From Chloroflexota bacterium (lineage in GTDB: Bacteria; Chloroflexota; UBA11872), in contig CBDEVI010000002.1 of the NCBI GenBank assembly GCA_965243625.1, positions 1,839,751-1,903,750 of the forward strand: a stretch of 64,000 bases of DNA, written 5' to 3'. Both the position numbers and the translations under genes were made by a program. Numbering within the stretch: the first letter of the stretch is position 1; the number at the start of each line of letters is the position of its first letter. The notes under the pieces were generated by a model. That model was not told the origin of the DNA. It did no database searches and saw only the letters and a list, made by a program, of their open reading frames with translations. Of this stretch, positions 1,617-62,614 are shown one piece after another.

Positions 1617-1795
1617 CGGGGATGGATTCCCGCCTCCAGAGACCTTTCCGTAACCCCTTCGTCATTCCGGCGGAGGCCGGAATCCAGTTCGGTCGAATCT
1701 GGAGGCGCACCGGAAGCTTGGCGCCGGGCGGGTCTGAGACCCGCCCCTACCGAATTTTGCAACGTCTCCCTCCGCCGGAATGACGGAATCAAATT
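1617..1795. repeat. Composite dispersed palindromic repeat (MITE/REP-like): hairpin GTCATTCCGGCGGAGGCCGGAATCCAG (1661-1687), hairpin GGGCGGGTCTGAGACCCGCCC (1726-1746) and a partial inverted copy CCGCCGGAATGACGG (1772-1786)
   Basis: Direct reading finds the same modules at ~8.9, 17.0, 35.5, 50.8, 56.8, 60.4 and 62.5 kb. Short ORFs over this span (e.g. 1581..1847, 1454..1792) translate the characteristic 'IPASAGMT'-type peptides and are artefacts. Confidence 0.6.
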
Positions 1796-1821
1796 GGTCC
1801 ACGACCGCTTGGGTGCCCTAT

Positions 1822-1842
1822 CTCTGTTCGGTTTTTGTTTGG
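1822..1842 (+). promoter_or_regulatory. Candidate SOS/LexA operator (GTTC-N7-GTTT direct-repeat-like) next to a TATAGT -10-like hexamer, upstream of imuA
   Basis: 'tctGTTCggtttttGTTTggTATAGTg' lies ~30-50 nt upstream of the imuA reading frame. It has one mismatch to the GTTC-N7-GTTC LexA box of some lineages. The appropriate LexA motif for this organism is unknown. Confidence 0.2.
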
Positions 1843-1876
1843 TATAGTGGCGTCCCGTCCTACCTAGGGCTTCCCA

Positions 1877-2713
1877 CTGCCTCTACCCGACCGCGAGCGT
1901 CCCGCCGCGCTGCGGCGCGCGGTCCGCGACATCGAGCAGCGCCTGGGGCTGCACGCCGCCGGCCGACTGTTCGGCGTCAATCCGCCGGAGGCCGGCTTTG
2001 CCACCGGCATCCCCGTGCTGGATCAGGCCACCGGCTTTGCGGGGATCCCTCGGGGCCGCGTGAGCGAGCTCACCGGCCCGCGCGGCGGCGGCGCACTGGC
2101 GCTGGGACTGCGCACCCTGGCCGCTGCGCTCGATCAGGGCGGGTTGGCGGCCTACGTCGATCTGCCCGGCACGTTCGCTCCCACCGCGGGCGCGGCCCTG
2201 AGCCTGGATCTGTCGCGCCTGGTGGTGGTGCGCCCGCCGGACGCCGACGCGGCGTTGCAGGCGACGGCCACGCTGCTGCGCAGCAACGCCTTCGAGGCTC
2301 TTCTGCTGGACCTGGAGGCCACCCGGCCGCCCGTCAACCGCTGGTCGCACCTGGCCGACCTAGCGGGGCGCGGGGCGGCGGGGCTGGTGGTGGTGACGGC
2401 GTCCGGCGGGCGGCGCGTCACCGGGCTGCCCTACCTGGCATCCCTGCGCCTCGGCGTGGCCTGCCGCGGCTGGCGCTGGCAGCGCAGCCGTCTGACCCAG
2501 GCGCCGGTCGGGCTGACGCTGGAGGTCCGGGTGCTGAAGTCGCGCAGCGGCACGGGCGCGCGGCGCCTCGTCATCGACTGTCCGTTTCTCAGGAGGTCCG
2601 GTGGACCGCAAGACGCTTTGCCTCTGGATGCCGCGCTTCCGCACCACGGTGGAAGCGCAGACGCACCCGGAGTGGTCGGCGCAGCCGCTGGCGATCTACG
2701 CGCGGCAAGCTAG
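1877..2713 (+). CDS. imuA: ImuA (RecA-fold SOS mutagenesis protein; cell-division-inhibitor SulA-like family)
   Basis: Frame-2 translation 'RALRRAVRDIEQRLGLHAAGRLFGVNPPEAGFATGIPVLDQATGFAGIPRGRVSELTGPRGGGALALGLRTLAAAL...' matches the ImuA N-terminus/RecA-like core. It sits directly upstream of imuB and dnaE2. The frame opens after the TAG at 1865-1867, but there is no ATG/GTG/TTG before the GTG at 2015; the only options are CTG at 1877 or 1910. The true start is therefore uncertain, and the track ORF starts at 2015. Confidence 0.65.
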   Translation: MPLPDRERPAALRRAVRDIEQRLGLHAAGRLFGVNPPEAGFATGIPVLDQATGFAGIPRGRVSELTGPRGGGALALGLRTLAAALDQGGLAAYVDLPGTFAPTAGAALSLDLSRLVVVRPPDADAALQATATLLRSNAFEALLLDLEATRPPVNRWSHLADLAGRGAAGLVVVTASGGRRVTGLPYLASLRLGVACRGWRWQRSRLTQAPVGLTLEVRVLKSRSGTGARRLVIDCPFLRRSGGPQDALPLDAALPHHGGSADAPGVVGAAAGDLRAAS

Positions 2714-4157
2714 CCAGCGGCGACTGATCGAGATTTCCGACGCCGCCCACGGCGCGGGGCTGCGGCTGGGAATGGCGGTCAAGGAGGCGGCGCAGCGCTG
2801 CCCGCAGGGCGTCTTCGTGCCCGACGACCCGCCGCGATACACCCGCGCGTTCGCGGCGGTGCTTGACGTGCTGGACCGCTTCTCCCCGTTGGTGGAGGAC
2901 GCCGGCGTGGGGCTGGCATTTGCCGACGCGGCGGGCCTGGAGCCGCTCTACGGCCCCGACGCGGCGCTGGGCGCGCGGGTGCGCCGCGACGTCGCGGCGG
3001 CGACCGGACACGCGGCCCACATCGGGCTGGCGACGGGACGCCTGGCGGCGGAGATTGCGGCGCGCACGGCGGGCGTCGAAGGCGTCACCGTCGTCGCCAC
3101 CTCCGACCGGGCCTACCTGGCCGAGCAGCCCGTGGAACGGCTGCCGCTGGACGAGCGGACGCTGGCCACCTTGCAAACGCTGGGCATTGACACGATCGGC
3201 GCATTTGCCGTCTTGCCGGCCAACGCCGTGCGGACTCGCTATGGGGTCGAGGGCGCACAGGCCCGGCGGCTGGCCCGCGGCGAGGAGCTCAGACCCCTGC
3301 GCGGTCGGACGCGGCCGCTCGTGCTGCACGAGGCGGTCGACTTCGAGTGGGAGGAGCACAACGTCGACCGCCTGGCCTTCGCGCTGCAGGCCCTGGCGCA
3401 GCGCCTGGTCGCGCGGCTGGCCCAGCGGGGCCTGATGGCGCAGCAGGTCGGCGGCCGGATCGAGCGCGCGGACGGCACGGTGCAGCGGTTCGGGCTGCCG
3501 CTGCCCGAGCCGTCCGCCGCGGCCGCCACCTTTCGCGACGCGGCCCGCTGGCGCTTCGAAGCGTGGGCCGACACGGCCCAAGCCGGCGCGGTGATGCCGG
3601 AGATTTCATCCCACCAGCCCGGCGTGGTGCGCATGAGCCTGGACGTGCGGCACCTGGCGCCGGGCGCCGGCACGCAACGGTCGCTGCTGGGCAACCGGTC
3701 GGAGCGCATGGCGCGCGCCAACCACGCGATCAGCCGCCTGCGGGCGCAGTTGGGCGACGCCGCGCTGTTCCGCATGGCGCTCCGTCCCGACGCCTTCACG
3801 CTCGACACGGCCAGCCGCCGGCTTGACGCCTACGTCGAGCCAAGCCCCACACCTGACGCCTCCCCGCCCTCGGCGGCGTGGCTGACCGGCCTGGTAGGCG
3901 CGCGCGGGCTCACGCGGCTCTTCACCCCGCCCCGTCCGGTGCGCCTCGGCCAAGACAAGGACGCCCGCTGGGTGACGCTGGAAGGCACGACCAGGAAAGT
4001 CGTCGCCAGCTATGGGCCGCAGCGGGTGCAGACGGAGTGGTGGGCGGAACCCGTCGACCGGGACTATCTGCACGTGCAGTTGGACGACGGCCGCGGCCTG
4101 GTGCTCTACCGCGACCGCGCCCGGGGGCGTTGGTTTGCCCAGGGAGCGCTCGATTGA
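2601..4157 (+). CDS. imuB: ImuB (inactive Y-family DNA polymerase-like scaffold of the ImuA-ImuB-DnaE2 mutasome)
   Basis: 518 aa. N-terminus 'LCLWMPRF...PLAIYA' fits the ImuB pattern. A strong AGGAGG sits 11 nt upstream of the GTG at 2601. It overlaps the imuA 3' end by ~110 nt and ends with a TGA that overlaps the dnaE2 start. Confidence 0.8.
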   Translation: MDRKTLCLWMPRFRTTVEAQTHPEWSAQPLAIYARQASQRRLIEISDAAHGAGLRLGMAVKEAAQRCPQGVFVPDDPPRYTRAFAAVLDVLDRFSPLVEDAGVGLAFADAAGLEPLYGPDAALGARVRRDVAAATGHAAHIGLATGRLAAEIAARTAGVEGVTVVATSDRAYLAEQPVERLPLDERTLATLQTLGIDTIGAFAVLPANAVRTRYGVEGAQARRLARGEELRPLRGRTRPLVLHEAVDFEWEEHNVDRLAFALQALAQRLVARLAQRGLMAQQVGGRIERADGTVQRFGLPLPEPSAAAATFRDAARWRFEAWADTAQAGAVMPEISSHQPGVVRMSLDVRHLAPGAGTQRSLLGNRSERMARANHAISRLRAQLGDAALFRMALRPDAFTLDTASRRLDAYVEPSPTPDASPPSAAWLTGLVGARGLTRLFTPPRPVRLGQDKDARWVTLEGTTRKVVASYGPQRVQTEWWAEPVDRDYLHVQLDDGRGLVLYRDRARGRWFAQGALD

Positions 4158-7100
4158 CCCAGCCCGCCTACGCCGAGTTGCACGCGCACAGCAATTTCTC
4201 GTTCCTGGACGGCGCGTCGCATCCCGAGGAAATGGCGGCGCGCGCGGCCGAGCTTGGGTTGACGGCGCTGGCGATCACGGATCACGACGGGGTCTACGGC
4301 GCGGTGCGGTTCTCCCACGCGGCGCGCGAGCACGGCCTGCATCCCATCGTGGGCATGGAAGCCAGCATGTCCGGCGGCTGCCACCTCACCCTGCTGGCAC
4401 GCGATCGGGAGGGCTACGCCAACATCTGCCGGATGGCCACGGCGGCGCACCGCGACCGGCCCAAGGGGACGGCGGAGCTGGACCTCGACACCCTGGCGCG
4501 GCACACGCGCGGGTTGGTTGGCCTGTCGGGTTGCCTGCGGGGCGCGATTCCAACCGCGGCGCTGCGCGGTGAGGAGCGCGAGGCCGTCGAGCTGGCGGGG
4601 ACCTATGCCGAGCTGTTCGAGCCCGGCGGCTTCTTCCTCGAGCTCCAGGACCATCGTCTCGAGGCGGAGCACCTGGCCAACGCCGGACTGCTCGAGGTCG
4701 CGCGGCGCACCGGCCTGCCGCTGGTAGCCACCAACAACGTCCACTACCACGACCGATCCCGTGCGCGACTGCAGGACGTGCTGGTTTGCATCAAGCACAC
4801 CGCCACGCTGGAAACGGCGGGGCGGCGGCTGCGGCCCAATCACGAGTTCGCGCTCAAGTCCGCCGATGAAATGGCGCGGCTCTTCGCCGGCGTCCCCGAG
4901 GCAATCAGCAACACCCTGCGCATCGCCGAGATGTGCGACTTCGACCTGAGCCGCAAGCTCGAATACGGCTTGCCCACGTTTCCCACGCCCGACGGCAAGT
5001 CGGAGTACGGCTACATGGAGCGCCTGGTCTGGGAGGGCGCGCGGCGGCGGTATCCCGACCTCGGCGAGACCGTGCGCGAGCGTGTGCGGCGGGAGCTGCG
5101 GTACGTCAAGGACCTGCGGCTGGCGGGCTATTTCCTCACCGTCCGCGACCTGGTGGACTTCTGCCACCGCCACGACATCCTGGTCAACACCCGCGGCTCG
5201 GCGCCCGGATCGATCCTCTGCTACGCCCTCGGCATCTCGATGGTCGACCCCATCGCCGCCGGGCTGATGTTCGAGCGGTTCATGTCGCCGGACCGGGACG
5301 AGCCGCCCGACATCGACCTGGACATCGAGCACCAGGAGCGCGAGCGGGTGATCCAGTACGTCTACCAGCGCCATGGCCGCCGCCGGGCGGCCATGGTGGC
5401 GAACGTCATCTGCTTTCGCGGGCGCTCGGCCATCCGCGACGTGGGCAAGGCGCTGGGTCTGCCGCAAGCCCAGGTGGACCGCCTGGCGCAGCGGCTGCAA
5501 TGGCATCCCAGCGTGGAGATGCCGCACCCGGACCAGGCGGGCGGCGACGTGCCGCGTGAGGTCTCCAATCGCGTGGGCCGCGATCTGCTGGAGCTGAGCC
5601 GGCAGATCGTGGACTTCCCCCGGCACCTGGGCATTCACACCGGGGGCATGATCATCGCCTCGCACCCGCTGGATGCGTCGGTGCCGATCGAGCCGGCGAC
5701 GATGGAGGGGCGCACCGTGGCGCAGTGGGACAAGGACGACTGCGCCGACGCCGGCCTGCTGAAGATCGACCTGCTGGGGCTGGGCATGCTGACGCTGATC
5801 CAGCGGGCGTTCCGGCTCATCGAACGGCGGCACGGCCGACGCCTGGCGCTGGCGGATTTCAGCTTCGACGACCCCGAGGTCTACGACGCGATCTGCGCGG
5901 CCGACACCATCGGCATGTTCCAGGTGGAAAGCCGCGCCCAGATGCACGTGCTGCCGCAGACCCGGCCGCGGTGCTTCTATGACCTGGTGGTGCAGGTGGC
6001 GATCATCCGGCCCGGGCCCATGACCACCAAGATGCACCGGCGGTGGATCCTGCGCCGCACCGGGCTGGAGGCGGACGATCCCGTGTGGCCCGGCCTGGCG
6101 ACGGTGCTGCAACGCACGCTGGGGCTGCCGATCTTCCAGGAGCAGTGCCTCCAGATCGCCATGGTCGCGGCCGGATTTTCGGCGACCAAGGCCGACGCGC
6201 TGCGGCGGGCGATGAGCCGCAAGCGCTCCCTGGCGCATATCCAGGCGCTGCAGGACGACCTGATGCAGGGCATGACCCGCAGCGGCATCCCCGCGGCGAC
6301 GGCGGAGCAGATCTATGCCCAGATCGAGGGCTATGCGGGCTATGGATTTCCCGAGGCGCATTCCTGTGCCTTCGCGCTGCTGGTGTACGTCTCGGCGTGG
6401 CTGAAGGTGCATCACCACGCGGAGTTCACTTGCGCGATCCTCAACAGCCAGCCGATGGGCTTCTACAGCCCGCACACGCTGGTGGGCGACGCCCAGCGGC
6501 ACGGGGTGACGGTGCGCCCGGTGGACATCCGGCACAGCCGCTTCGAGTGCACGGTGGAGCCGGACGGCGCGGTGCGAATGGGCTATCAGTACGTGGAGGG
6601 GCTCGGCGAGGCCCACCGCGAGCGCCTGGATGAGGCGTCGGCCCGCGGGCCGTATCGCTCCCTGGAAGACTTTTGCCGCCGGACGCGGTTGCCGATCAAC
6701 GTCCTGGAAGCGCTGGCCACGGCTGGGGCCTTTCGAGGCCTGGGGCTGAACCGGCGCGCGGCGCTCTGGCAGGTGCAGGCCCACGCGCCGGCGGCCCACG
6801 GCGGGGAGCTGCCGAACCTGGTGGCGGAGCTGGAGGAGCCGGTGGCGCTGCCGCCGGCCGACGAACTGGTGCAGGTGCGGATGGACTTCGCCGCCACCAG
6901 CCTCTCGACCCGCTGGCGCGGCTTGGAGTTCCTGCGGCCGGCCTTGGCGCACGCCGGCGTGCTGCGCGCCGCCGATCTGCTGGACCTGGCCGCCAAGCGG
7001 CGCGCAGGCTCGGATAGCGCAGCGACGGTCACGGCGCGGCGCGCGCGCATTCCCCGGGTCTCAATTCCGGCCGGCGTGCGCCCACCGATGCCGCGCGCAC

Positions 7101-7543
7101 GCCGCGGTCGAGGTCGATCGCTCCGCCAACCCACGGCGGGGCGCTATGGCGAGCGCGCCCGCCGCACCGGGAATCACTACGACGGCCAGAGCAGCGGGCG
7201 GCAGTTCCAGGGCCTGGGCGACAGCGGCGTTCCCGACGCCCTGCGGGAACAGGCTCGCACCGGAGTCATGGTCACCGTGGCCGGCATCGTGATCAACCGC
7301 CAGCACCCGCCCACCGCGCGCGGCTACACCTTCCTGTCGCTGGAGGATGAAACCGGGCTGGTGAACATCATCATTCGCCCGTCGGTCTTCACCCGCTACC
7401 AGCGCGCGATTTTGGATTCGCCGGTGATGCTGGTCTACGGCGAGATGCAGGACGAGCACGGGGCGGTGCAGGTGATGGCCCACACCTGCCACCCCGCCAC
7501 GAGCGACGGGCTGGGCGCACCGCCCTCGCGGGATTGGTCATGA
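4154..7543 (+). CDS. dnaE2: Error-prone DNA polymerase DnaE2 (PolIII alpha paralogue; PHP domain, polymerase core, C-terminal OB fold)
   Basis: 'AYAELHAHSNFSFLDGASHPEEMAARAAELGLTALAITDHDGVYGAVRF' is the PHP N-terminus of DnaE2. The product is ~1130 aa and ends in an OB-fold tail (VTVAGIVINRQHPPTARGYTFLSLEDETGLVNII). The likely start is TTG 4154, overlapping the imuB stop; the track ORF extends upstream to 3878 in the same frame. Confidence 0.9.
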   Translation: MTQPAYAELHAHSNFSFLDGASHPEEMAARAAELGLTALAITDHDGVYGAVRFSHAAREHGLHPIVGMEASMSGGCHLTLLARDREGYANICRMATAAHRDRPKGTAELDLDTLARHTRGLVGLSGCLRGAIPTAALRGEEREAVELAGTYAELFEPGGFFLELQDHRLEAEHLANAGLLEVARRTGLPLVATNNVHYHDRSRARLQDVLVCIKHTATLETAGRRLRPNHEFALKSADEMARLFAGVPEAISNTLRIAEMCDFDLSRKLEYGLPTFPTPDGKSEYGYMERLVWEGARRRYPDLGETVRERVRRELRYVKDLRLAGYFLTVRDLVDFCHRHDILVNTRGSAPGSILCYALGISMVDPIAAGLMFERFMSPDRDEPPDIDLDIEHQERERVIQYVYQRHGRRRAAMVANVICFRGRSAIRDVGKALGLPQAQVDRLAQRLQWHPSVEMPHPDQAGGDVPREVSNRVGRDLLELSRQIVDFPRHLGIHTGGMIIASHPLDASVPIEPATMEGRTVAQWDKDDCADAGLLKIDLLGLGMLTLIQRAFRLIERRHGRRLALADFSFDDPEVYDAICAADTIGMFQVESRAQMHVLPQTRPRCFYDLVVQVAIIRPGPMTTKMHRRWILRRTGLEADDPVWPGLATVLQRTLGLPIFQEQCLQIAMVAAGFSATKADALRRAMSRKRSLAHIQALQDDLMQGMTRSGIPAATAEQIYAQIEGYAGYGFPEAHSCAFALLVYVSAWLKVHHHAEFTCAILNSQPMGFYSPHTLVGDAQRHGVTVRPVDIRHSRFECTVEPDGAVRMGYQYVEGLGEAHRERLDEASARGPYRSLEDFCRRTRLPINVLEALATAGAFRGLGLNRRAALWQVQAHAPAAHGGELPNLVAELEEPVALPPADELVQVRMDFAATSLSTRWRGLEFLRPALAHAGVLRAADLLDLAAKRRAGSDSAATVTARRARIPRVSIPAGVRPPMPRARRGRGRSLRQPTAGRYGERARRTGNHYDGQSSGRQFQGLGDSGVPDALREQARTGVMVTVAGIVINRQHPPTARGYTFLSLEDETGLVNIIIRPSVFTRYQRAILDSPVMLVYGEMQDEHGAVQVMAHTCHPATSDGLGAPPSRDWS

Positions 7544-7561
7544 GCCGCCGGCACGATTCGC

Positions 7562-8820: not shown

Positions 8821-8880
8821 GATCGCCCTCACCCCGGCCCTCTCCCCAACGAGACCTCTGCGAGCTTCGGTCGGACGAAG
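8821..8880. repeat. Short dispersed repeat of the 'PSPxPSPxxGEG'-peptide family
   Basis: 'gatcgccctcaccccggccctctccccaacgagacctctgcgagcttcggtcgg' is a Pro/Ser-rich repeat motif seen in intergenic DNA of several high-GC phyla. It is a single copy here and the call is weak. Confidence 0.3.
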
Positions 8881-8902
8881 GATGGTCCGAGGAATCTCGC
8901 CA

Positions 8903-8965
8903 GCCCCCAGGTTCAGTGAAGGGTGGATTCCCGCCTTCGCGGGAATGACGGAGGCGTTGCGTCAG
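8903..8965. repeat. Palindromic MITE/REP-like repeat copy (…aggttcaGtgaagGGTGGATTCCCGCCTTCGCGGGAATGACGGAGG…)
   Basis: Same core as the copies at 35.5, 50.8 and 56.8 kb. The ORF 8882..9124 translating 'WIPAFAGMTEALRQGF' is an artefact of it. Confidence 0.6.
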
Positions 8966-9039
8966 GGATTCGATGGGCGGCCTTGCGCCATTCTGGCGTG
9001 TACCCTCGGGAACCGAATCACTGACAGAGAGAAACGCTC

Positions 9040-16999: not shown

Positions 17000-17150
17000 C
17001 AAATGTGTCCGTCATTCCGGCGAAAGCCGGAATCCAGGTCTGCGCCTCGCGGGCAACGTGCCCTTCGACCGGCCGCAGCGGCATGCCCGGGCCCAGCGGT
17101 GGGACTGCCGCTCTATTTCGGCCACGGGGCCGACCGGCTGGTTCGGATGG
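17000..17150. repeat. Composite MITE/REP-like repeat (hairpin GTCATTCCGGCGAAAGCCGGAATCCAG plus a 'CCCTTCGACCGGCCGCAGCGGCATGCCCGG' module)
   Basis: Same palindrome family as at 1661-1687. The first 51 codons of track ORF 17005..17601 ('MSVIPAKAGIQV...') come from this repeat and are not part of the NUDIX protein. Confidence 0.55.
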
Positions 17151-20534: not shown

Positions 20535-20535
20535 A

Positions 20536-21464: not shown

Positions 21465-21571
21465 CTCACGCTTGGGCGGCGTAACCGGCGGCACATTCCA
21501 GTCGGAACCATCGCCCCGCGCCCACGGGACACTCTGCCCGAGCGGCTCATCGAGGTAGTCTCCCAGGCGCG

Positions 21572-35380: not shown

Positions 35381-35509
35381 GGAAGTTCTTCCTATCCGAT
35401 TGGCGCAGGGGGCGCAGCGCCCCACGGACTCAACCTGGCACTAGATTCCTGCCTTCGGAGACTCTTGCAAAACCAGGCCAAGTTTGAGGATTACCGGGTG
35501 AGTCCTATC

Positions 35510-35640
35510 CGCTCCGAGGTTCAATGAAGGGTGGATTCCCGCCTTCGCGGGAATGACGAAGGATTACGCAACGGTCTCCCTTCGCGGGAATGACGGAGGG
35601 GGCCGCCGAGGATTCTCTTCGTCGGAACGACGCATCAGGG
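35510..35640. repeat. MITE/REP-like composite repeat with two 'CTTCGCGGGAATGACG' hairpin halves
   Basis: 'ccgaggttcaatgaagGGTGGATTCCCGCCTTCGCGGGAATGACGaaggattacgcaacggtctcCCTTCGCGGGAATGACGGAGGgg…' is near-collinear with the copies at 8.9, 50.8 and 56.8 kb. Confidence 0.6.
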
Positions 35641-35671: not shown

Positions 35672-36352
35672 CTAGCAGCCGCTGTAGATAGTCATGCTGG
35701 GTAGGCAGCCGAAGTTGATCTTGGTGGTCCGAATCGTGACTTCCTCCACCGGCGCCGACGTCTCGCCGTCCGGTCCCGGACCCAGCGCCACGCCGCCGAT
35801 CTTGTCCAGCGTCGCCAACGACGGCGCGTGGTTCTCCTTGACGCGTCCGAAGATGGTGTAGTTGGGCGGCAACTCGGCGTCCGAGAGGTCGTTGAGAATG
35901 ATGTAGAAGCGTGATCCGTTCGAGTTTGGCGCGCCGGTATTGGCCATGACCAGATCACCGCGACGGTAGGGCTGCTGCGGGGCCTCGATCTCGAACGTAT
36001 AGCCCGCGTCGCCCGTTCCCGTGCCGGTGGCGTCGCCGGTCTCGATGAGCACGCCCGGCACCACGCGATGCACGGTGATGCCGTCGTAGTAGCCCTCCTG
36101 GGCCAGGAACAGGAAGCTATTGACCGCCCGCGGCGCCTCTTGCGGCACCAGGTTGAAGGTCATCCGTCCAAGGCTCGTGGTGAGAACGACGCTGTAGGGT
36201 CGAAGCTCCTCAACCGTCATCTCCGGCTCGGCGGCGAACGTCGGCGGGCCCTCGGGCTCCGCCTCTCCGCACGCGGCGACCGCAACTGCCGCGATCGCTA
36301 CGACCAACGCAATCACGATTGCTCGCCACATTGACGTTTGCTCCGCATCCAT
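35672..36352 (-). CDS. Cyclophilin-type peptidyl-prolyl cis-trans isomerase, lipoprotein, with C-terminal Cys-X11-Cys tail (…KINFGCLPSMTIYSGC)
   Basis: The cyclophilin core 'FHRVVPGVLIETGD', 'GYTFEIEAPQQPYRRGDLVMANTGAPNSNGSRFYIIL' and signal 'MWRAIVIALVVAIAAVAVAACGE' (lipobox). The track ORF extends to 36583; the start is chosen at the Met before the signal peptide. Confidence 0.8.
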   Translation of the reverse strand: MDAEQTSMWRAIVIALVVAIAAVAVAACGEAEPEGPPTFAAEPEMTVEELRPYSVVLTTSLGRMTFNLVPQEAPRAVNSFLFLAQEGYYDGITVHRVVPGVLIETGDATGTGTGDAGYTFEIEAPQQPYRRGDLVMANTGAPNSNGSRFYIILNDLSDAELPPNYTIFGRVKENHAPSLATLDKIGGVALGPGPDGETSAPVEEVTIRTTKINFGCLPSMTIYSGC

Positions 36353-36430
36353 CCGCCGGTTCTCCCGACATTCTGCCGTGTCGGCCGCCCTCTCGCCATG
36401 CAAGGCCCGCTGAGCTGACCAACGACCCGC

Positions 36431-37249
36431 ATGCGCTACGGTTTGCGGACGCGCCCGGAACGCCGGCAGGCGAGAGGGGAGTTCGTGAGCGTCGACATCG
36501 ACCAATGCGTCGCCGACGTCCTGGACATTGGCCACTGCGTCTTGCCCAATCACTTTCCCAAGTCGGCGATCGACGCGTTCCACGAAGGATTCCTACCGCT
36601 GCTGGGGGAGGTGGCGGCCCGCATTCCCGAAGGCAATCGCCGCGCCAACCGCTGGGCCATCGGCCTGCCCTTCGCCCCGCCGTTCTATCAGTCCGCGTTC
36701 TTTGGGGACGACACGGTGAACGAGATCGTGGGACGCATCCTGGGCGAAGGCATGTTCATCGCCTACTACGGCACCGATACGCCGGTCGCGGGATCCGAAG
36801 ACCAGCAGGTGCACTCGGACATCCGCCCGCTGTTCCCGGAGCAACCGGACCTGCGCTATCCGCCGCCGACGCTCTCCGTGCGGTTCACGAGCGTGGACAT
36901 GGCGCTCGAAAACGGGCCCTACAGCACGTCGGAGCGCACCCAGCACCTCACGCGCGACGAGGCACAGGCCAAACTCGCCGCGGGGGAGATCGAGCTCGCG
37001 CCGCTGCTGCTCCGCGCCGGCGACGTGCTCATCAGCGACGCCCGCACGCTGCACCGCGGCACGGCGAATCGCACGGACGAGCCGCGTCCCTTCGCCGTGA
37101 TCGTCTACAACCGCGACTGGTACCACCTGGAAGGCGAACTGCGGCTGGAGGCCAACGAAAACACGCCGATGCTGCTGGAGTCGTTCTACCAGTCGCTGCC
37201 GCCGGCCGAGCAAAACCTCCTCCGGCGAGTACCAAGGACGGATGGCTAG
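36431..37249 (+). CDS. Phytanoyl-CoA dioxygenase (PhyH)-family Fe(II)/2-oxoglutarate oxygenase
   Basis: 'QVHSDIRPLFPEQ' (HxD...) and 'LHRGTANRT' (distal His/Arg) in a double-stranded beta-helix family context. 272 aa; an alternative start is the GTG at ~36485. Confidence 0.65.
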   Translation: MRYGLRTRPERRQARGEFVSVDIDQCVADVLDIGHCVLPNHFPKSAIDAFHEGFLPLLGEVAARIPEGNRRANRWAIGLPFAPPFYQSAFFGDDTVNEIVGRILGEGMFIAYYGTDTPVAGSEDQQVHSDIRPLFPEQPDLRYPPPTLSVRFTSVDMALENGPYSTSERTQHLTRDEAQAKLAAGEIELAPLLLRAGDVLISDARTLHRGTANRTDEPRPFAVIVYNRDWYHLEGELRLEANENTPMLLESFYQSLPPAEQNLLRRVPRTDG

Positions 37250-50603: not shown

Positions 50604-50769
50604 ATGACGAAGTTGGGGAGGACGAGCTCAATTCGATCGCCTCCCGCAGCATATCCTGACGCCCTTGTCGCCAAACGGCTGACCGGCGATTGTCCGGACC
50701 TCCCTGATTCGGCCGATTGAGACCCCTGTGGGACTCGGACCGGCGATGGACTTTCGGACGAATCCTGGA

Positions 50770-50915
50770 GGCTTCGAGGTGAGGCGGCGGGTGGATTCCC
50801 GCCCCGTATCAAGTACGGGGCAGGCTCTTCGCGGGAATGACGGAGGGGTTACGCGAAGGCCTCCCTGCGATGGGACATGCTTCGCGGGAATGACGAGGGC
50901 TTTGCCGGAGTCTCC
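50770..50915. repeat. MITE/REP-like composite repeat with nested hairpin (GGGTGGATTCCCGCCCCGTATCAAGTACGGGGCAGG…CTTCGCGGGAATGACG ×2)
   Basis: Near-identical to the copy at 56.77-56.92 kb. Track ORF 50728..50934 ('VDSRPVSSTGQALRGNDGG…FAGMT') is its translation artefact. Confidence 0.6.
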
Positions 50916-52920: not shown

Positions 52921-52941
52921 GGGCGGGTTTGAAACCCGCCC
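52921..52941. terminator. Perfect GC-rich hairpin GGGCGGGTTT-g-AAACCCGCCC between convergent genes (bidirectional terminator candidate; member of the GGGCGGGTnnnnnACCCGCCCCTACC family)
   Basis: 10-bp stem read directly. It lies 9 nt after the hypothetical-gene stop and 14 nt after the PPIase stop on the other strand. Confidence 0.45.
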
Positions 52942-52954
52942 CTACCTCAGACGC

Positions 52955-53623
52955 TCAGGGCCGGCAGTTGAAGCCAGCCGCGGTCGAACCGTCGCCGGAG
53001 CAATTGAGGGTCACGCCGGTTTTCATCGCCGAGATCGTGATCGCCTGCTGCGGCGCCGACGACTCGCCGTCCGCGGCCGTGCCGACCGGCACCGCCTCGA
53101 TCTTGGCCAACGTGTCGAACGACGCCTGGTGCCCTTCCTTGATCTGGCCGAAGAGCGTGAAGTCCGGCGACAGCCGGCCCTGCTCGCTGAGGTCGTCCAG
53201 GACGATGAAGAACTGCGAGCCGTTGGAGTTGGCCACGCCCTTATTGGCCATTGCCAGCCCGCCGCGGACGTAAGGCCGCTGCGGCGGCTCGATCTCGAAC
53301 GAGTAGCCCGGTCCTCCCGTGCCGGTGCCGGAGGGGTCGCCGCCCTGCACCATGAAGCCCGGGATCAGCCGATGGAACGTCACCCCGTCGAAGTAGCCCT
53401 CGTTGGCCAGGAATAGGAAGTTGTTGACGGCCAGCGGCGCTTCTTCGGAGAAGAGCGTGAAGGTCATGCGCCCCAGGCTGGTGGTGATGATCACCCAGGG
53501 CTCACCGGCGGGAATGTCCATGGCCGGATAGGCGGCGTAGGTCTTGGGGCCCTCGGGCTCGGCTTCACCGCATCCCACCACCACCACAACCAGCAGCAAC
53601 GACACCAGTGCGAGTCGCAACAT
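52955..53623 (-). CDS. Cyclophilin-type PPIase lipoprotein with C-terminal Cys-X11-Cys tail (…TLNCSGDGSTAAGFNCRP)
   Basis: 'MLRLALVSLLLVVVVVGCGEAEP' (lipobox), then the cyclophilin core 'FHRLIPGFMVQGGDPSGTGTGGPGYSFEIE…GGLAMANKGVANSNGSQFFIVL'. An AAGGAG Shine-Dalgarno lies 9 nt upstream. Confidence 0.8.
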   Translation of the reverse strand: MLRLALVSLLLVVVVVGCGEAEPEGPKTYAAYPAMDIPAGEPWVIITTSLGRMTFTLFSEEAPLAVNNFLFLANEGYFDGVTFHRLIPGFMVQGGDPSGTGTGGPGYSFEIEPPQRPYVRGGLAMANKGVANSNGSQFFIVLDDLSEQGRLSPDFTLFGQIKEGHQASFDTLAKIEAVPVGTAADGESSAPQQAITISAMKTGVTLNCSGDGSTAAGFNCRP

Positions 53624-53822: not shown

Positions 53823-54485
53823 TCACGGCTTGCAGGTGAAGCCGATCGCTCCCTCGCCTGAGCAGTTGAGCGTCACGCCGGTTTTCATCGCCGAGATCGT
53901 GATCGCCTGCTGCGGCGCCGACGACTCGCCGTCCGCGGCCGTGCCGACCGGTACCGCCTCGATCTTGGCCAACGTGTCGAACGATGCCTGGTGCCCTTCC
54001 TTGATCTGGCCGAAGAGCGTGAAGTCCGGCGACAGCCGGCCCTGCTCGCTGAGGTCGTCCAGGATGATGAAAAACTGCGAGCCGTTGGTGTTTGGCGTGC
54101 CCTTGTTGGCCATCGCCAATCCGCCGCGGACGTAGGGCCGCTGCGGCGGCTCGATCTCGAACGAGTAGCCCGGTCCTCCCGTGCCGGTGCCGGAGGGATC
54201 GCCGCCCTGCACCATGAAGCCGGGAATCAGGCGATGGAAGGTCACCCCGTCGAAGTAGCCCTCGTTGGCCAGGAAGAGGAAGTTGTTGACGGCCAGCGGC
54301 GCCTCTTCGGAGAAGAGCGTGAACGTCATGCGCCCCAGGCTGGTGGTGATGATCACCCAGGGCTCACCGGCGGGAATGTCCATGGCCGGATAGGCGGCGT
54401 AGGTCTTGGGGCCCTCGGGCTCGGCTTCACCGCATCCCACCACCACAACAACCAGCAGCAACGCCACCAATGCGAGTCGCAACAT
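53823..54485 (-). CDS. Cyclophilin-type PPIase lipoprotein, tandem paralogue with C-terminal tail …TLNCSGEGAIGFTCKP
   Basis: Nearly identical to 52955..53623 apart from the last ~15 residues. The start is at the Met of 'MLRLALVALLLVVVVVGCGE'; the track ORF extends to 54620. Confidence 0.8.
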   Translation of the reverse strand: MLRLALVALLLVVVVVGCGEAEPEGPKTYAAYPAMDIPAGEPWVIITTSLGRMTFTLFSEEAPLAVNNFLFLANEGYFDGVTFHRLIPGFMVQGGDPSGTGTGGPGYSFEIEPPQRPYVRGGLAMANKGTPNTNGSQFFIILDDLSEQGRLSPDFTLFGQIKEGHQASFDTLAKIEAVPVGTAADGESSAPQQAITISAMKTGVTLNCSGEGAIGFTCKP

Positions 54486-54618
54486 TTCCCACGCTCCTTC
54501 ACCCGCATCCGCACCGTCGGCATTGTCGCAGCGCCTTCGCCTCTCCGTCGCGCGGTCGTGCGGTCGCAGTTCTAAACTGTTCCGTGCGTACTGGGCCGCC
54601 ATTGACAAGGGACGCGCC

Positions 54619-55050
54619 ATGACCCATCGCCTCTACCGGAGCCAGGTCGATCGCATGCTCACCGGCGTTGCCGGCGGGATGGCGGAATATCTGCGCGTGG
54701 ACCCGGTGATCGTCCGCATGCTCTGGGTGGTGGCCGTGTTCCTCTCCAGCGGCGTGGGGCTGCTGGTGTACGTCGCCCTGGCGATCGTCATGCCGACCGC
54801 TCCACAACTCGACGACGCCGTCGAAGCTCCGGATGACGCCTCGGCACAGACGGCGGACGGCAGCCAACCGGCCACACCAGCCCGATACGTCGCCGCCACG
54901 AACGGCGCCGCGCTTGTGGTGGGCTCGGCTTTGATCATCATCGGCGCCGCTGCGCTCATGAGCCAGTTCGGGTGGTTTGACGCCTGGCGGCTCTGGCCGC
55001 TGGCCCTGATCGCGATTGGCGGTCTGTTGATCTTCAACCAGCGGCGCTAG
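54619..55050 (+). CDS. PspC-domain membrane protein (phage-shock-protein-C family)
   Basis: 'MTHRLYRSQVDRMLTGVAGGMAEYLRVDPVIVRMLWVVAVFLSSGVGLLVYVALAIVMP' is the canonical PspC domain. It is followed by a second TM, 'LVVGSALIIIGAAAL'. Confidence 0.8.
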   Translation: MTHRLYRSQVDRMLTGVAGGMAEYLRVDPVIVRMLWVVAVFLSSGVGLLVYVALAIVMPTAPQLDDAVEAPDDASAQTADGSQPATPARYVAATNGAALVVGSALIIIGAAALMSQFGWFDAWRLWPLALIAIGGLLIFNQRR

Positions 55051-55056
55051 GCAAGC

Positions 55057-55959: not shown

Positions 55960-55972
55960 GGGAGCATCCGCC

Positions 55973-56683: not shown

Positions 56684-56769
56684 TCGCGCCCACAGCCTGG
56701 AGACCTTCCAACTTGGAGGCAGGGGGCGACGCATGCGTCGCCCCTACGCACGGGCTAACAGGTTGACCG

Positions 56770-56915
56770 TCCGCTGATTTCCCGCCCCCAGGTTCAATGA
56801 CGGGTGGATTCCCGCCCCGTATCAAGTACGGGGCAGGCTCTTCGCGGGAATGACGGAGAGGTTACGCAAAGGTCTCCCTTCGCGGGAATGACGGAGGGGT
56901 TAGGCAGAGGTTTCC
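56770..56915. repeat. MITE/REP-like composite repeat (near-identical to 50770-50915)
   Basis: 'ccccaggttcaatgacGGGTGGATTCCCGCCCCGTATCAAGTACGGGGCAGGctCTTCGCGGGAATGACGGAGAGgttacgcaaaggtctcCCTTCGCGGGAATGACGGAGGGG'. The first 58 codons of track ORF 56804..57415 derive from it. Confidence 0.6.
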
Positions 56916-56977
56916 TACCTGGGGATACTGAGGCATATGGCGTCGGCCGGCGGCACAAGTCCAGTGGACATCAACGC

Positions 56978-57415: not shown

Positions 57416-57497
57416 CGCCACCGGGACGACGCTCGCGACCGCGGGCGACTCGTGCCGGCGCGTACGATGCGCTGAGGCGTGAGACGGGGAGTCCTCA

Positions 57498-58652
57498 GTG
57501 AGCTATCCGCTGGCCTTCTCCAAGAGCGAATTCGAGCGCCGCGCCGCCGCGGTCACCACACGCATGCGCGATGTCGGATTGGACGCGCTGATTGCGTATT
57601 CGGTTCGCAATAGCCAGGGCCCGGTGGCCTACCTTGGCGGCTACGAGCCCGACCTGGGCCTGCACGACGTGTCGTATTTCCTGTTGATCCCCGGCGGGCG
57701 GCCCGACGCCGTCCTGGTGACCAATGGGTTCTGGGACGATCCGGCCTCGCGGACGTGGGTCGACGACGTGGTGATCTCCTACAAGTTCGAGTCGAGCCTG
57801 CCGGAGCTGCTGCCGAGCGCGGCATCGCGGATCGGCGTCGCGGGATTCGACTACCTGCCCGCTCCGGTCTATCTGGGCCTGAAGGCGGCTCACCCGCAGT
57901 GCGAGATCGTGGACGCCACGCGCCTGGTGAAGGAAGTCGCGCAGATCAAGAGTCCGGCCGAGATCGAGGTGATTCGCACCTGCATGTCGATCAACGATTG
58001 CGGGGGGCGGGCATTCCTTGCGAACGTCCACGAGGGCGCGAACGAGCGGTTGCTGCAAGTTGCCGTCGACCAAGCCCTGTTGCAGGCGGGCGCCGACGGC
58101 CTCTACTACAACCCGCAGATCTACAGCGGAGCGAGCGTGGCGCACGGCATGGGCATGCGCACGGACCGAGTCCTCCAGGCAGGCGACCAGGTGCAGGTGG
58201 ACTGCGGGGCGATGTATCGCGGCTACCGGGGCGATCTCTCGCGGGTCACCACCGTCGGCCGCGCGTCGCCGGAGGTCAGGCGCATCATGGAGGCCACGGC
58301 GCTGATGTACGAAGCCATGGTGGAGTCGCTGCGCCCGGGAACGGCCGCGGCCGACGTGGCCCGCGCGGGGATTCGAGTGGCGGAAGCCAATGGGCTCGGC
58401 GACGGCCTGTATCGCCCGACGCCGGACCATCCGCCGGGCATGCTGGGCCACGGCATCGGCTGCTGGGTGCACGAGCTGCCGGACATTCAACTCGATTCGA
58501 CCGACGTGATTCAGCCCGGCATGGTGGTGGTGTTCGAGACCATCCTGGGACGGCCTGGCACCGGCGGGGCGAAGATCGAGGACGCCGTGCTGGTGACCGA
58601 TGGCGCGCCCGAACGGCTTTCCAGCATCCCGGTGCGCACGTGGCCGCTGTGA
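57498..58652 (+). CDS. M24-family metallopeptidase (Xaa-Pro aminopeptidase/creatinase-like; creatinase N-domain plus pita-bread fold)
   Basis: 'GDQVQVDCGAMYRGYRGDLSRVTTVG' (DxG...D metal ligands), 'HGIGCWVHELP' (His, Glu) and 'GMVVVFET' (Glu). Confidence 0.8.
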   Translation: MSYPLAFSKSEFERRAAAVTTRMRDVGLDALIAYSVRNSQGPVAYLGGYEPDLGLHDVSYFLLIPGGRPDAVLVTNGFWDDPASRTWVDDVVISYKFESSLPELLPSAASRIGVAGFDYLPAPVYLGLKAAHPQCEIVDATRLVKEVAQIKSPAEIEVIRTCMSINDCGGRAFLANVHEGANERLLQVAVDQALLQAGADGLYYNPQIYSGASVAHGMGMRTDRVLQAGDQVQVDCGAMYRGYRGDLSRVTTVGRASPEVRRIMEATALMYEAMVESLRPGTAAADVARAGIRVAEANGLGDGLYRPTPDHPPGMLGHGIGCWVHELPDIQLDSTDVIQPGMVVVFETILGRPGTGGAKIEDAVLVTDGAPERLSSIPVRTWPL

Positions 58653-58704
58653 AATCGGTGGTAGCGTACGCGTCGGCTGCCTCGTGCCGACGTAAGGTCC
58701 CCGC

Positions 58705-60357: not shown

Positions 60358-60396
60358 GCGCCCTGCCATGCCGGTCGTCTCCGCAGCGCCACTCGT

Positions 60397-60478
60397 GTCA
60401 TTCCGAAACGAAGTGAGGAATCCAAGGACGTTGTGCCTTCTCGCTGCTCCTTAGATTCCTCGCGTTGCTCGGAATGAC
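60397..60478. repeat. Long imperfect inverted repeat GTCATTCCGAAACGAAGTGAGGAATC…GATTCCTCGCGTTGCTCGGAATGAC between convergent genes
   Basis: ~25-bp arms around a ~30-nt loop. It is a variant of the GTCATTCC…GGAATGAC palindrome family and may act as a transcription terminator. Confidence 0.45.
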
Positions 60479-60521
60479 AAATCAAACCGACAAGCGTCGC
60501 GTAAATCCCGCAGCTGACTAG

Positions 60522-61337
60522 TCAGCCACACGGCTCGATATCGACGACCAGCAGCGATTCCTCGTTGCCGGCGTTTTTCGCCAGCAGTTCGCCGCCCGGG
60601 CCGAAGACCGCCGACCGGCCGGTGACCCGGTGCGGCCAATTTGGGCGCTCATCGAAGTCGCCGCGCGGGTCCTTGGCGTCGAGGTAGAGCGCAAACACCC
60701 CCAGCCGTTCGGCCAGGTCCTCGGCACGGCGCTTGAGCGTGTCGCGCTGGTTGAAGTCCAAGATTTCGTCCCATGAATCCCCGGCATCCTGGAAATCCTT
60801 GATGCAGTCGAAGTGCGGCTCGACGATGACGCGAGCGCCCTGACCCACGAGCGTGTCGTGGATGGCGGGGGACTCGTTGTCGGCGCAGATGGTCACGCCA
60901 ATGGTGTGTGGGCCAAGCCGGAATGGCGCCATGTCGTCGCCGCCGCCGCGGTAGAAGTCCATTTCGCTGGTGGTCGGTTGCAGCTTGCGCTGGACGTGCC
61001 GCACGCCGTCGCCGTCCACGATGACGTACGCATTGAACGGCTTTTGCGCGAGCCCGCGTTCGGCAATGCCGACGCCGATCGCCAGACCAAGTCGCGCCGC
61101 GAGTCGCGCCAGCCGCTCGGTCGAGGGGCCGGGAATCGGCTCAGATCGCGTCTCCAGGTCGTCGAGGTCGGCGTCCGCGTCGTAGGTCACCCAGGGACCG
61201 TGCACGGAGAATTCGGGGAAGAGCACCAGGTTGCACCCGGCGGCGGCCGCCTGCTCCGCGAAGGCTTCGATCTTCTCCAAATTCGCGTCCCGCTGCCCGC
61301 GCAGCGAGCACAGGGTGACCATGCCGATTCGCATCAA
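60522..61337 (-). CDS. Carbon-nitrogen hydrolase family protein (nitrilase/amidase superfamily)
   Basis: 'LVLFPEFSVHG' (catalytic Glu), 'RHVQRKLQP' (Lys) and 'IGVTICADNESP' (Cys nucleophile). 271 aa. Confidence 0.8.
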   Translation of the reverse strand: MMRIGMVTLCSLRGQRDANLEKIEAFAEQAAAAGCNLVLFPEFSVHGPWVTYDADADLDDLETRSEPIPGPSTERLARLAARLGLAIGVGIAERGLAQKPFNAYVIVDGDGVRHVQRKLQPTTSEMDFYRGGGDDMAPFRLGPHTIGVTICADNESPAIHDTLVGQGARVIVEPHFDCIKDFQDAGDSWDEILDFNQRDTLKRRAEDLAERLGVFALYLDAKDPRGDFDERPNWPHRVTGRSAVFGPGGELLAKNAGNEESLLVVDIEPCG

Positions 61338-61790
61338 GGCCTCGATCGCGGCGGTTCCGACGCCCGCTAAGCCTCACACAGGCGGAGACTGCCTGCGTAT
61401 CGGGAACTCCGCCGAACGCTTGGCAAGACGCCGCTCGTTTTCGGGGGGTGGCGCGGGTGGTGAGCCATCGCGGCCGACGACTCGCGAATCGAGGCACGTC
61501 GTGCACGGTTTTCCGCGTGACAGTGGCTATGCTTACAGTCGTACCAGCCAACGTGCGGCGACTCTTGGGCTGGGCGTGTAGGGCTGAAGCTCATTCCACC
61601 CGCCGCGAGCAGTGCCGGGATGGGCGCCGGGGCAGGTCATGCGATCTATCGGGCGGCCTCGAGACGACGACTGGAACGCGCGACGAGGCGCGAACCCGCG
61701 TCCAGCCGGGTGAGAATCCCGCCGCACGTCGCGTGGTTGTCGAACGGCTAGGGCCTTAGGTCCTGCCCTTTCATGGACGGAGCATGTGCC

Positions 61791-62384
61791 ATGGCCCGCT
61801 TGGCGATTTTCATTGATGGCGCGTACCTGGAGTCGGTGCTCAAGTACGAGTTCGGCGGCGTTCGGATCGATCTGACGAAGCTCGTCGATGAGATTCAGAA
61901 CCACGTCGAGGACAACAGCCCGGATCCCGTCGAAGTCCTGCGGACGTACTACTACAACTGCCGTCCGTATCAGAGCGACCCCCCAACGCCGGAGGAGTTG
62001 GATCGATACTCGAACTCCCGGCGCTTCGAGGACGCGCTGCGCTATCTGCCCCGCTTCGAGGTGAGACTGGGCTATCTCCGCAAGAGCGGCATCGACGAGT
62101 GGGGAAACCCGGTGTTCGAGCAAAAGCAGGTCGATCTGCTGCTCGGCCTTGACATGGCGCTGCTCGCCAGTCGGCGGCAGGTGCAGCACGTGGCGCTCGT
62201 GGCCGGCGACGGGGACCTCTATCCCGCCGTGCAGGTCCTCAAGAGCGAGGGGGCCATTGCGTGGCTGATCCACGGGCCCCGCCAAGGCAGCGACGGGCGC
62301 CCGATGTACTCGTCAAATCTCTTCAAAGCCGCGGACGAGCGATTCGAGCTGGATGAAGAGCTGATCGACCGTCTGCGGATGTAG
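61791..62384 (+). CDS. NYN-domain (LabA/DUF88-like, PIN-fold) predicted ribonuclease
   Basis: 'MARLAIFIDGAYLESVLK…IDLTKLVDEI', 'VDLLLGLDMALLA' and 'HVALVAGDGDLYPAVQVLKSEGAI' reproduce the conserved acidic positions of NYN/LabA proteins. The start is at the Met at 61791; the track ORF starts at 61773. Confidence 0.75.
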   Translation: MARLAIFIDGAYLESVLKYEFGGVRIDLTKLVDEIQNHVEDNSPDPVEVLRTYYYNCRPYQSDPPTPEELDRYSNSRRFEDALRYLPRFEVRLGYLRKSGIDEWGNPVFEQKQVDLLLGLDMALLASRRQVQHVALVAGDGDLYPAVQVLKSEGAIAWLIHGPRQGSDGRPMYSSNLFKAADERFELDEELIDRLRM

Positions 62385-62443
62385 GCAAGGTCCGCGGACT
62401 CACTTTCCCGCGCGTGGTGGCCGTTGCCTAGTCTCTCCGTCAT

Positions 62444-62614
62444 TCCCACGGAGCCTGCGCCTGCCAAGGCGGTGAGCCGGAATCCAGTCCAGTCGAATCT
62501 GGCGGCGCGCCGGATGCCTGGCCTCGGGCGGGTCACAGACCCGCCCCTACCATGGTTGGGGTACCCATTGCACCCCACGATCCCGCCCCGGTAGGGGCGG
62601 GTTTCCAACCGGCC
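62444..62614. repeat. Composite repeat: GTCATTCC-type half, 'ccggaatccagtccagtcgaatctggcggcgc' module, hairpin GGGCGGGTCACAGACCCGCCCCTACC and its inverted partner GGTAGGGGCGGGTTTCCAACCGGCCC
   Basis: 62444-62560 is collinear with 1661-1753. The two 'CGCCCCTACC / GGTAGGGGCG' copies (62541-62550 and 62589-62598) face each other across ~40 nt. Confidence 0.55.

Follow-up and report, generated by a model that had tools for sequence, protein, structure and literature searches.

A family of short palindromic repeats occupies eight intergenic regions in a 64,000-nt stretch of contig CBDEVI010000002.1 from a Chloroflexota bacterium (assembly GCA_965243625.1), hereafter called the window. These regions lie between ordinary housekeeping genes and were found to be intergenic in all eight cases by gene calls, Pfam scans and the precomputed Pfam annotation of a near-identical relative, as an earlier sequence-only reading of the window had proposed. 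That reading had counted nine loci. All of them carry the repeat, but those at 35.53 and 35.58 kb are parts of one composite, which reduces the number to eight regions. The neighbouring genes are co-directional in four regions, divergent in two and convergent in two. Among spacers of more than 250 nt, about half hold the repeat, as counted from an approximate gene map, so that it does not clearly fill most of the long intergenic regions as had been suggested. Comparison loci and contigs from other genomes are denoted by L-numbers (L001, L010, L221 and so on).

The loci were read one by one and their parts were located exactly (Table 1). In each repeat unit, an 8-bp stem closes a 4-nt loop, with CGTC as an unpaired tag on the 5′ side and CCA as a tail on the 3′ side. 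Four intact short-loop hairpins of the form CGTC-ATTCCSGC-NNNN-GCSGGAAT-CCA were identified, together with two identical long-loop forms (50792-50842 and 56805-56855), in which a second small hairpin lies within the loop. The copy at 62.45 kb (62438-62486) had been listed as an ordinary family member and is a long-loop form with a stem mismatch. The one at 60.40 kb had likewise been listed as a copy and turned out to be an inverted pair (60396-60479) belonging to a distinct subfamily, which has a TGTC tag and a stem predicted to be weak. Orphan arms are located at 1623, 1774, 35442, 35584, 35617, 50880 and 56878. The CGTC tag is present in all four intact and all three long-loop copies, and the sequence TCCA terminates every one of them. 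The loop is GAAG, GGAG or GAAA in the intact copies and has a length of 23–28 nt in the three long-loop copies.

The hairpin pattern given by the sequence-only reading was detected at 1661-1686 (+), 8924-8949 (−), 17011-17036 (+) and 35532-35557 (−), where shuffled sequences lead to an expectation of 0. The pattern is real, and six matches to a covariance model agree with it. This model, derived from 40 copies and searched without filters, recovered the four intact copies (E about 1e-10) and, with E 0.003, the two long-loop forms at 50.79 and 56.80 kb; it gave no further significant match and no hidden copies in other spacers of the window. In 1.61 Mb of other loci, 52 matches were obtained. 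For the single arm CGCGGGAATGACG, 16 occurrences with at most 2 mismatches were counted versus 6.8 expected. A repeat finder connected all loci of the earlier list and confirmed direct and inverted repeats among them. The segments at 50.8 and 56.8 kb, which had been described as collinear over about 140 bp, were found to align over 82 nt without gaps (95% identity) or over about 105 nt with one 15-nt indel. No Rfam family matches the repeat; only the two tRNAs were matched in the window. The peptides WIPAFAGMT, VIPAKAGIQ and VDSRPVSSTGQALRGNDG are direct translations of the repeat, as had been recognized. The family explains such spurious open reading frames (ORFs) as well as assembly breaks in these metagenome-assembled genomes (MAGs).

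As single-stranded DNA (ssDNA), the intact copies fold into the expected hairpin with −8.9 to −9.0 kcal/mol. The pairing of the stem ATTCCSGC/GCSGGAAT was examined in 57 distinct copies, collected over 1.68 Mb of Chloroflexota DNA; 98.2% of all stem cells pair in them. Four of the eight base pairs have changed on both sides, from C-G to G-C in 23 cases and from G-C to A-T in 4 cases, and both shuffled and slid controls remained far below the observed pairing. The initial set of 40 sequences had been filtered for pairing beforehand; the 57 copies collected with the model form a fairer set, yet one that is also fitted to the structure. With regard to strand, the CGTC-tagged strand is the C-rich strand in 41 of the 58 model matches over all loci and the G-rich strand in 17, the matches being non-independent. 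In the two most skewed loci, the tag lies on the C-rich strand in 7 of 7 and 4 of 4 cases. This bias could reflect an avoidance of the strand that is exposed as ssDNA, or the orientation relative to genes.

Table 1. Positions of the repeat elements in the window (kb values name the region).
Feature	Position	Strand	Remarks
Nested composite	1623-1785	−	outer REP split at loop: 3′ arm 1623-1633, 5′ arm 1774-1785
Loop copies of the 1.6-kb nest	1634-1637 and 1770-1773		CTCC, one beside each outer arm
Insert of the 1.6-kb nest	1638-1769		132 nt, ends AGAGAC...GTCTCC
Intact short-loop CGTC-1 REP	1660-1686	+	CGTCATTCCGGC-GGAG-GCCGGAATCCA, within the 1.6-kb insert; 50 bits; −8.9 kcal/mol as ssDNA
GTAG-tagged palindrome	1726-1751	−	GGTAGGGGCGGGTCTCAGACCCGCCC, second REP family; −12 kcal/mol, z −3.6
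Composite, about 125 nt	8850-8976	−	REP framed by a left and a right part; neighbours are divergent amidohydrolase and RidA-like genes
Intact REP of the 8.9-kb composite	8924-8950	−	53.6 bits
Solitary intact REP	17010-17036	+	21 nt past stop of tRNA-synthetase gene
Composite	35442-35632	−	between tRNA-Phe and cyclophilin gene
Orphan 3′ arm plus loop (35.5 kb)	35442-35456
Composite element (35.5 kb)	35457-35579		contains intact REP 35532-35558
Two further 5′-arm-plus-loop units (35.5 kb)	35580-35595 and 35617-35632		37-nt period
Composite	50711-50895	−	between divergent genes; extra 5′ arm 50880-50895
Long-loop REP	50792-50842		loop contains hairpin CCCCGTA..TACGGGG
GTAG-tagged palindrome	52921-52946	−	nearly fills the 42-nt spacer of convergent genes
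Composite	56699-56915	−	between RraA-like and lipocalin-like genes
Long-loop REP (56.8 kb)	56805-56855
Extra 5′-arm unit (56.8 kb)	56878-56893
GTAG-tagged palindrome (56.8 kb)	~56724-56749
TGTC-tagged inverted pair	60396-60427, 60449-60479	+, −	tags outward; between convergent genes
Long-loop REP variant	62438-62486	+	other inner hairpin, one stem mismatch
Two GTAG-tagged palindromes, inverted	62526-62551, 62590-62615	−, +	from repeat search

The type CGTC-1 of repetitive extragenic palindromes (REPs) has been defined by a CGTC tag, an 8-bp stem starting with A-T/T-A, a 4-nt loop and a CCA tail, and is the same as the Neisseria repeat dRS3; TGTC or CCTC tags are tolerated, and loop variation within the type was noted (Di Nocera, De Gregorio and Rocco 2013, PMC3733652). 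Because tag, stem, loop and tail of the window repeats all match this definition, they are assigned by their sequence to the CGTC-1 REPs, and the label "REP-like" given to them earlier agrees with every sequence feature of this type. They show the same motif as dRS3, NTS and the "Ssn-related motifs", NTS being the longer oriented motif CGTCATTCCCGCGMAVGCGGGAATCYRG (Chenal et al. 2025, PMC11893778). Matches to this consensus amount to 27 of 28 positions for the copies at 8.9 and 35.5 kb and to 25–26 of 28 for those at 1.66 and 17.0 kb, and the departures are compensatory stem changes.

Repeats with a CGTC tag were reported for Proteobacteria, Chlorobi, Bacteroidetes, Spirochaetes and Thermotogae, while Chloroflexi were listed for GTAG repeats only (PMC3733652). 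The main text of the NTS study does not mention Chloroflexota (Chenal et al. 2025, PMC11893778), and a REP survey from 2025, which includes Chloroflexota genomes, refers to CGTC only in passing, in its reference list. No published report of CGTC REPs in Chloroflexota was found; the kind of element itself is already known. The points for specialists are the conserved long-loop form, the loop-centred breakpoints and the fast turnover among close relatives.

The long-loop form is composed of the 5′ arm, GRAG, (A)GCCTG, a G+C-rich inner hairpin and the 3′ arm. The same architecture was identified twice beside the ssnA gene of L010, in L088 and in L217, with an extended form in L031. The "nested hairpin" CCCCGTATCAAGTACGGGG was considered as a recent insertion and rejected, since the long-loop form flanks ssnA in the distant L010 and L088.

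The hairpin usually lies within an element of about 125 nt. Its left part of 21 nt (GGAGACCnTTGCGTAAyCCyTy) directly adjoins the CGTC tag, and GCAnGGGTCTCC forms the end of its right part, which is about 75 nt long. The composite ends form imperfect inverted repeats (GGAGACCGTTGC / GCAAGAGTCTCC), of which 10 of 12 positions match at 35.5 kb and fewer elsewhere, and no inverted repeats occur around the bare hairpin outside its own stem. The hairpin core is nearly invariant; the composite flanks have an average column identity of 56%. Every orphan arm is broken off at the loop, which it keeps. In two regions, 1623-1785 with CTCC and 35442-35595 with CTTC on both sides, a REP is split by such an element, so that the minus strand, which carries the outer CGTC tag, reads 5′ arm, loop, [GGAGAC...GTCTCC], loop, 3′ arm. 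The left units repeat in register with a period of 37–38 nt. Plain tandem arrays of the 5′ arm with periods of 14–19 nt were found in other Dehalococcoidia.

The nested pattern is as expected from an insertion into the hairpin loop with a 4-nt duplication; such an insertion is possible but unproven. On this reading, the composite would be a miniature inverted-repeat transposable element (MITE) with imperfect terminal inverted repeats (GGAGACnnTTGC ... GCAAnnGTCTCC), which some transposase inserts into the 4-nt loops of other REPs with duplication of the loop, the hairpin being only cargo and target. The insert does have the loop at either end, both at 1.6 kb (TGGATTCCCGC-CTCC-[132 nt]-CTCC-GCCGGAATGACG) and at 35.5 kb (TAGATTCCTGC-CTTC-[123 nt]-CTTC-GCGGGAATGACG), and the outer arms of the 1.6-kb site are perfectly complementary in L221. 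Moreover, the regions at 8.9, 35.5, 50.8 and 56.8 kb all contain the composite, as do relatives, and the junction of GTCTCC, loop and 3′ arm recurs in L002, L214 and L219. The insertion sequences IS1397 and ISKpn1 of enterobacteria insert into REP loops with a short duplication, and this resembles the two nested cases; they are, however, full insertion sequences with a transposase, whereas the insert found here is a non-coding composite of 123–132 nt that carries a REP itself.

Several results do not fit the MITE explanation. The relatives at 35.5 kb have the right-hand junction only, and a single insertion is insufficient there; the 35.5-kb composite as one clean loop insertion was accordingly rejected. 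The copies at 8.9 and 56.8 kb show neither a split REP nor a clear duplication. Compared with empty sites, no target-site duplication was detected at 8.9, 56.8 or 60.4 kb, and the 4-nt loop duplication was seen only in the two nested cases, which are also the only complete ones. An uninterrupted, "empty" REP at a nested site was not present in any relative compared at 35.5 and 1.6 kb, and neither a transposase, in about 40 window ORFs scanned, nor a related autonomous insertion sequence sharing these ends was found in the window. A metagenome scan for more junctions yielded only four short contigs ending in the repeat, and a blind search for split REPs over all loci was swamped by neighbouring complete copies. 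In L090, L092 and L093 (LXNJ01; short metagenome contigs of high G+C), the junction GGTCTCC-CTCC-GCGGGAATGACG lies at most about 100 nt from one contig end, which fits assemblies breaking at the repeat. Taken as a whole, we regard the MITE explanation as unlikely; the term, which the sequence-only reading had used, applies only loosely, to the composite, whose terminal inverted repeats are imperfect and whose target-site duplication is not consistent.

A related possibility is a self-nesting mobile composite of about 125 nt that enters the 4-nt loop of another copy and duplicates it, followed by deletion or slippage giving rise to orphan arms and in-register arrays. A composite nested into another composite would also yield the in-register left (37–38 nt) and right units. 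We hold this scenario to be doubtful. The tandem 5′-arm arrays, the presence of only the right-hand junction and the lack of an empty site in the relatives compared make slippage at hairpins a live alternative. If the scenario is true, it would show concretely, for the first time, by what process CGTC-type REPs move, possibly via single-strand breaks made by the nuclease Ssn described below. The question dates from the description of these REPs as elements without a dedicated transposase.

The comparison with relatives revealed that the repeats are gained and lost quickly between close relatives. BLAST alignments are interrupted at the repeat-bearing spacers, and the presence of repeat blocks differs among relatives at 1.6, 35.5, 50.8, 56.8, 60.4 and 62.45 kb. 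At 56.8 kb, the spacer has a length of 22–70 nt in L004-L009, in which the repeat block is absent, compared to about 290 nt in the window, and L002 and L003 possess different module sets. The TGTC pair at 60.4 kb is present in the window, L003 and L004 and absent from L002, L006 and L009. The block of about 210 nt at 50.8 kb is common only to the window and L002; the block at 62.45 kb is absent in L002. Four relatives display three further states at 35.5 kb, namely a single long-loop REP (L217), the composite with one orphan arm (L219) and the composite with two right-hand units (L214/215). At the sites at 50.8 and 56.8 kb, the closest relative L002 has a short-loop form where the window has a long-loop form; the two forms were thus exchanged at fixed sites. 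The solitary REP at 17.0 kb is the same copy in L001, with 2 substitutions.

The nested composite at 1.6 kb is shared with L221 despite another upstream gene and is missing in L222. Synteny is interrupted about 30 nt left of it (window ~1590-1622), where a gene for an fn3-repeat protein lies in L221 and macB in the window; the composite and its 30-nt flank are common to both despite this break.

Since whole blocks were gained or lost in orthologous spacers, these segments are non-coding, dispensable and fast-changing. The sequence-only reading would have been contradicted by copies belonging to conserved coding genes, and the relatives' spacers speak against that. Its proposal of an actively spreading element holds in the sense of rapid turnover, with orthologous spacers of relatives lacking, gaining or swapping entire repeat blocks. 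Close relatives that differ by whole blocks constitute a good natural data set on hairpin gain, loss and nesting.

The published partner of the NTS motif is SsnA, a 94-aa GIY-YIG protein. It binds and cuts NTS only as ssDNA and on one strand only, is inactive on RNA, and still cuts when the two NTS halves are located on separate oligonucleotides; many bacteria carry ssnA genes flanked by NTS-related motifs (Chenal et al. 2025, PMC11893778). As separated halves are cut, the long-loop and split copies could therefore remain SsnA substrates. For the detection of ssnA genes, a hidden Markov model (HMM) was built from five real GIY-YIG nuclease family proteins of plasmid records, one of which (Photobacterium) is flanked by an exact NTS. 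It was searched on the six-frame ORFs of the window and of 81 Chloroflexota loci. Regular-expression searches for GIY-YIG motifs had given no match; this method was too crude and was replaced by the HMM.

In L010, a Dehalococcoidia MAG, a 96-aa Ssn homologue was detected (E 4e-38), and short-loop and long-loop REPs are located on both sides of its gene. More than 1000 homologues of this protein were found in a large protein collection. Two of them were looked up, L087 (Dehalococcoidia according to NCBI) and L088 (an ENA/NCBI contig), and both genes are hairpin-flanked; the hairpin in L087 overlaps the called ssnA start. Given these ssnA genes flanked by the same hairpins, the pairing of repeat and nuclease exists in Chloroflexota. 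A pairing known mainly from Proteobacteria is thereby extended to this phylum with almost the same recognition sequence, which argues for horizontal spread or for a very strong constraint on the pairing.

In IMG/VR, more than 120 viral or proviral contigs (L094-L213; G+C 41 to 73%) contain the exact 27-nt motif, and some of these contigs show Neisseria-type mosaic arrays. An Ssn was located on the same contig in 6 of 120 contigs fetched, and in the three that were checked (L121, L136, L154) the motif lies beside or inside the Ssn ORF. A scan of IMG/VR proteins gave no Ssn relative; the six were found by the HMM on contigs fetched by the DNA motif. These contigs, the identity of the motif with dRS3 and the synteny break about 30 nt from the 1.6-kb composite in L221 would suit hairpins used by other mobile DNA as attachment or target sites, which is the role of dRS3 for the filamentous prophages of Neisseria with their IS110-type transposase. 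However, no prophage, integrase or insertion sequence adjoins any copy in the window, and the variable blocks are repeat modules of 50–230 nt and not inserted genes. Domains of transposases, integrases or nucleases were not found in about 40 window ORFs scanned, nor in the precomputed calls of L001 (10.6-31.5 kb). A role as target sites is considered very improbable.

The hairpins might instead function chiefly at the RNA level, by terminating or attenuating transcription or by stabilizing mRNA 3′ ends, which has been proposed for E. coli REPs. The copies at 17.0 kb (21 nt past a stop codon), 56.8, 60.4 and 62.45 kb lie just downstream of genes, the stem would form in RNA as well, and the covariation is equally compatible with this. 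On the other hand, no copy possesses a T-run and none is among the sites of a terminator scan, which gave a number of terminator-like sites in the window at or below the shuffle expectation. The regions at 8.9 and 50.8 kb separate divergent genes, where a hairpin would fall within promoters or 5′ leaders. Conservation of the unpaired CGTC and CCA tags between phyla, together with a nuclease gene flanked by the motif, argues for sequence-specific recognition by a protein over a generic RNA hairpin; SsnA, moreover, does not act on RNA. We judge a main role in RNA to be quite unlikely. Among the functions suggested by the sequence-only reading, the terminator is not supported, since T-tails are missing and two of eight regions separate divergent genes. 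The protein-binding site is best supported, with tags kept across phyla, a motif that flanks ssnA elsewhere and cleavage of this motif by SsnA.

The whole of these results is probably explained by a CGTC-1 REP family in the host chromosome that is acted on by an Ssn-family nuclease encoded elsewhere in the genome. The hairpin would form once the DNA is single-stranded, and a small GIY-YIG single-strand nuclease of the Ssn family would recognize hairpin and tags in one orientation only. A cut beside the hairpin could then be repaired by copying from other repeat copies. Such cut-and-copy repair would account for units and neighbouring modules that are shuffled, duplicated in register and gained or lost among close relatives, and for a hairpin core that is far more uniform than its flanks. 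The host genome would accordingly possess an Ssn that acts on the window copies and drives their spread.

Some points weigh against this explanation. Ssn is not known to mobilize or homogenize REPs; its published role is the modulation of natural transformation in Neisseria (PMC11893778), and the GIY-YIG nucleases do not belong to the transposases. Slippage of replication at hairpins could also duplicate the arms in register without a nuclease. No ssnA was detected by the HMM in the window or in about 180 kb of nine close relatives (L001-L009), a small fraction of genomes of 3 Mb, and 19% of repeat-rich genomes in the published survey have no ssnA (Chenal et al. 2025, PMC11893778). The window is also too small for a genome-wide copy number.

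A second, unrelated family of GTAG-tagged palindromes is interspersed in three of the loci. The palindrome GGTAG-GGGCGGGTC..GACCCGCCC (−12 kcal/mol) was identified at four sites, with a variant in the 56.8-kb region (Table 1). It often lies 40–60 nt from a CGTC hairpin and was also observed in L002, L003 and L009. These palindromes are consistent with the GTAG REP super-family, which has been linked to REP-associated tyrosine transposases (RAYTs). No RAYT gene was seen in the window, and no genome-wide search was made.

The TGTC-tagged subfamily TGTCATTCCGAGCGnAGCGAGGAATCTAA is conserved in distant Chloroflexota and was found in L003, L004, L021, L043, L076 and L079. Its centre is not Watson-Crick complementary and could pair via tandem G.A mismatches. 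The TGTC 5′ arm forms arrays with a 19-nt period in L043 (20270-20900), and these arrays recur every 189 nt.

The host lineage is known only from metagenome assemblies. For a protein encoded next to a repeat, the closest relatives (83–96% identity) are exclusively Chloroflexota MAGs and the more distant ones belong to Dehalococcoidia/SAR202. Gene order is conserved with the closest Chloroflexota MAGs over window positions 49-62.4 kb. The relative L001 (ENA scaffold_1154) is 96–98% identical to the window and covers 10.6-31.5 kb. Between its PPK2 and metallo-beta-lactamase genes, L001 has an extra gene of 213 aa without a Pfam hit (L001 10956-11596 versus window 21465-21571), which the window does not contain.

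An imuA-imuB-dnaE2 mutagenesis cassette (window 1868-7543), coding for a RecA-like protein, a Y-family polymerase-like protein and a 1221-aa alpha subunit, starts directly after the 1.6-kb composite. The stretch CTATCTyTGTTCGGTTTTTGTTTGGTATAGTGGCGTCCCGTCCT (~1819-1861) upstream of imuA is kept in L221 and L222, even without the repeat, and is likely a promoter or SOS operator. Furthermore, three paralogues of cyclophilin-type prolyl isomerases are encoded at 35672-36583, 52955-53623 and 53823-54620. Two of them form a tandem pair with 93% identity over 300 nt, and L007 has a tandem of three.

Compared with the CGTC-1 REPs described so far, the window family is likewise extragenic, has several subfamilies coexisting in one genome, includes TGTC variants and is accompanied by GTAG-type REPs. 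It differs in consisting mainly of single units and mosaics and not of head-to-head dimers, and in its conserved long-loop form with a nested hairpin. The likeness to dRS3/NTS and SsnA of Neisseria comprises an almost identical, orientation-specific 28-nt sequence, the intergenic location and, in L010, L087 and L088, a motif that flanks a GIY-YIG gene of 95–105 aa. In contrast to Neisseria, the stem variants CCGGC/GCCGG and CCCAC/GTGGG occur here beside the Neisseria form, and neither the window nor the stretches sampled from close relatives contain an ssnA. The GTAG REPs with their RAYT (Y1) enzymes are also small tagged palindromes that are thought to be handled as ssDNA hairpins by an enzyme whose gene they flank, and a GTAG-type family is present in the window too; the repeats described here carry a CGTC tag, and their candidate enzyme is a GIY-YIG nuclease instead of an HUH/Y1 transposase. 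As in the neisserial intergenic mosaic elements (NIMEs) and the bacterial interspersed mosaic elements (BIMEs) of E. coli, the hairpins are interleaved with short repeat modules that fill the spacers and vary between strains. The partner modules of the window family are lineage-specific, with 21 nt on the left and 75 nt, ending in GTCTCC, on the right, and its breakpoints are located at the hairpin loop.

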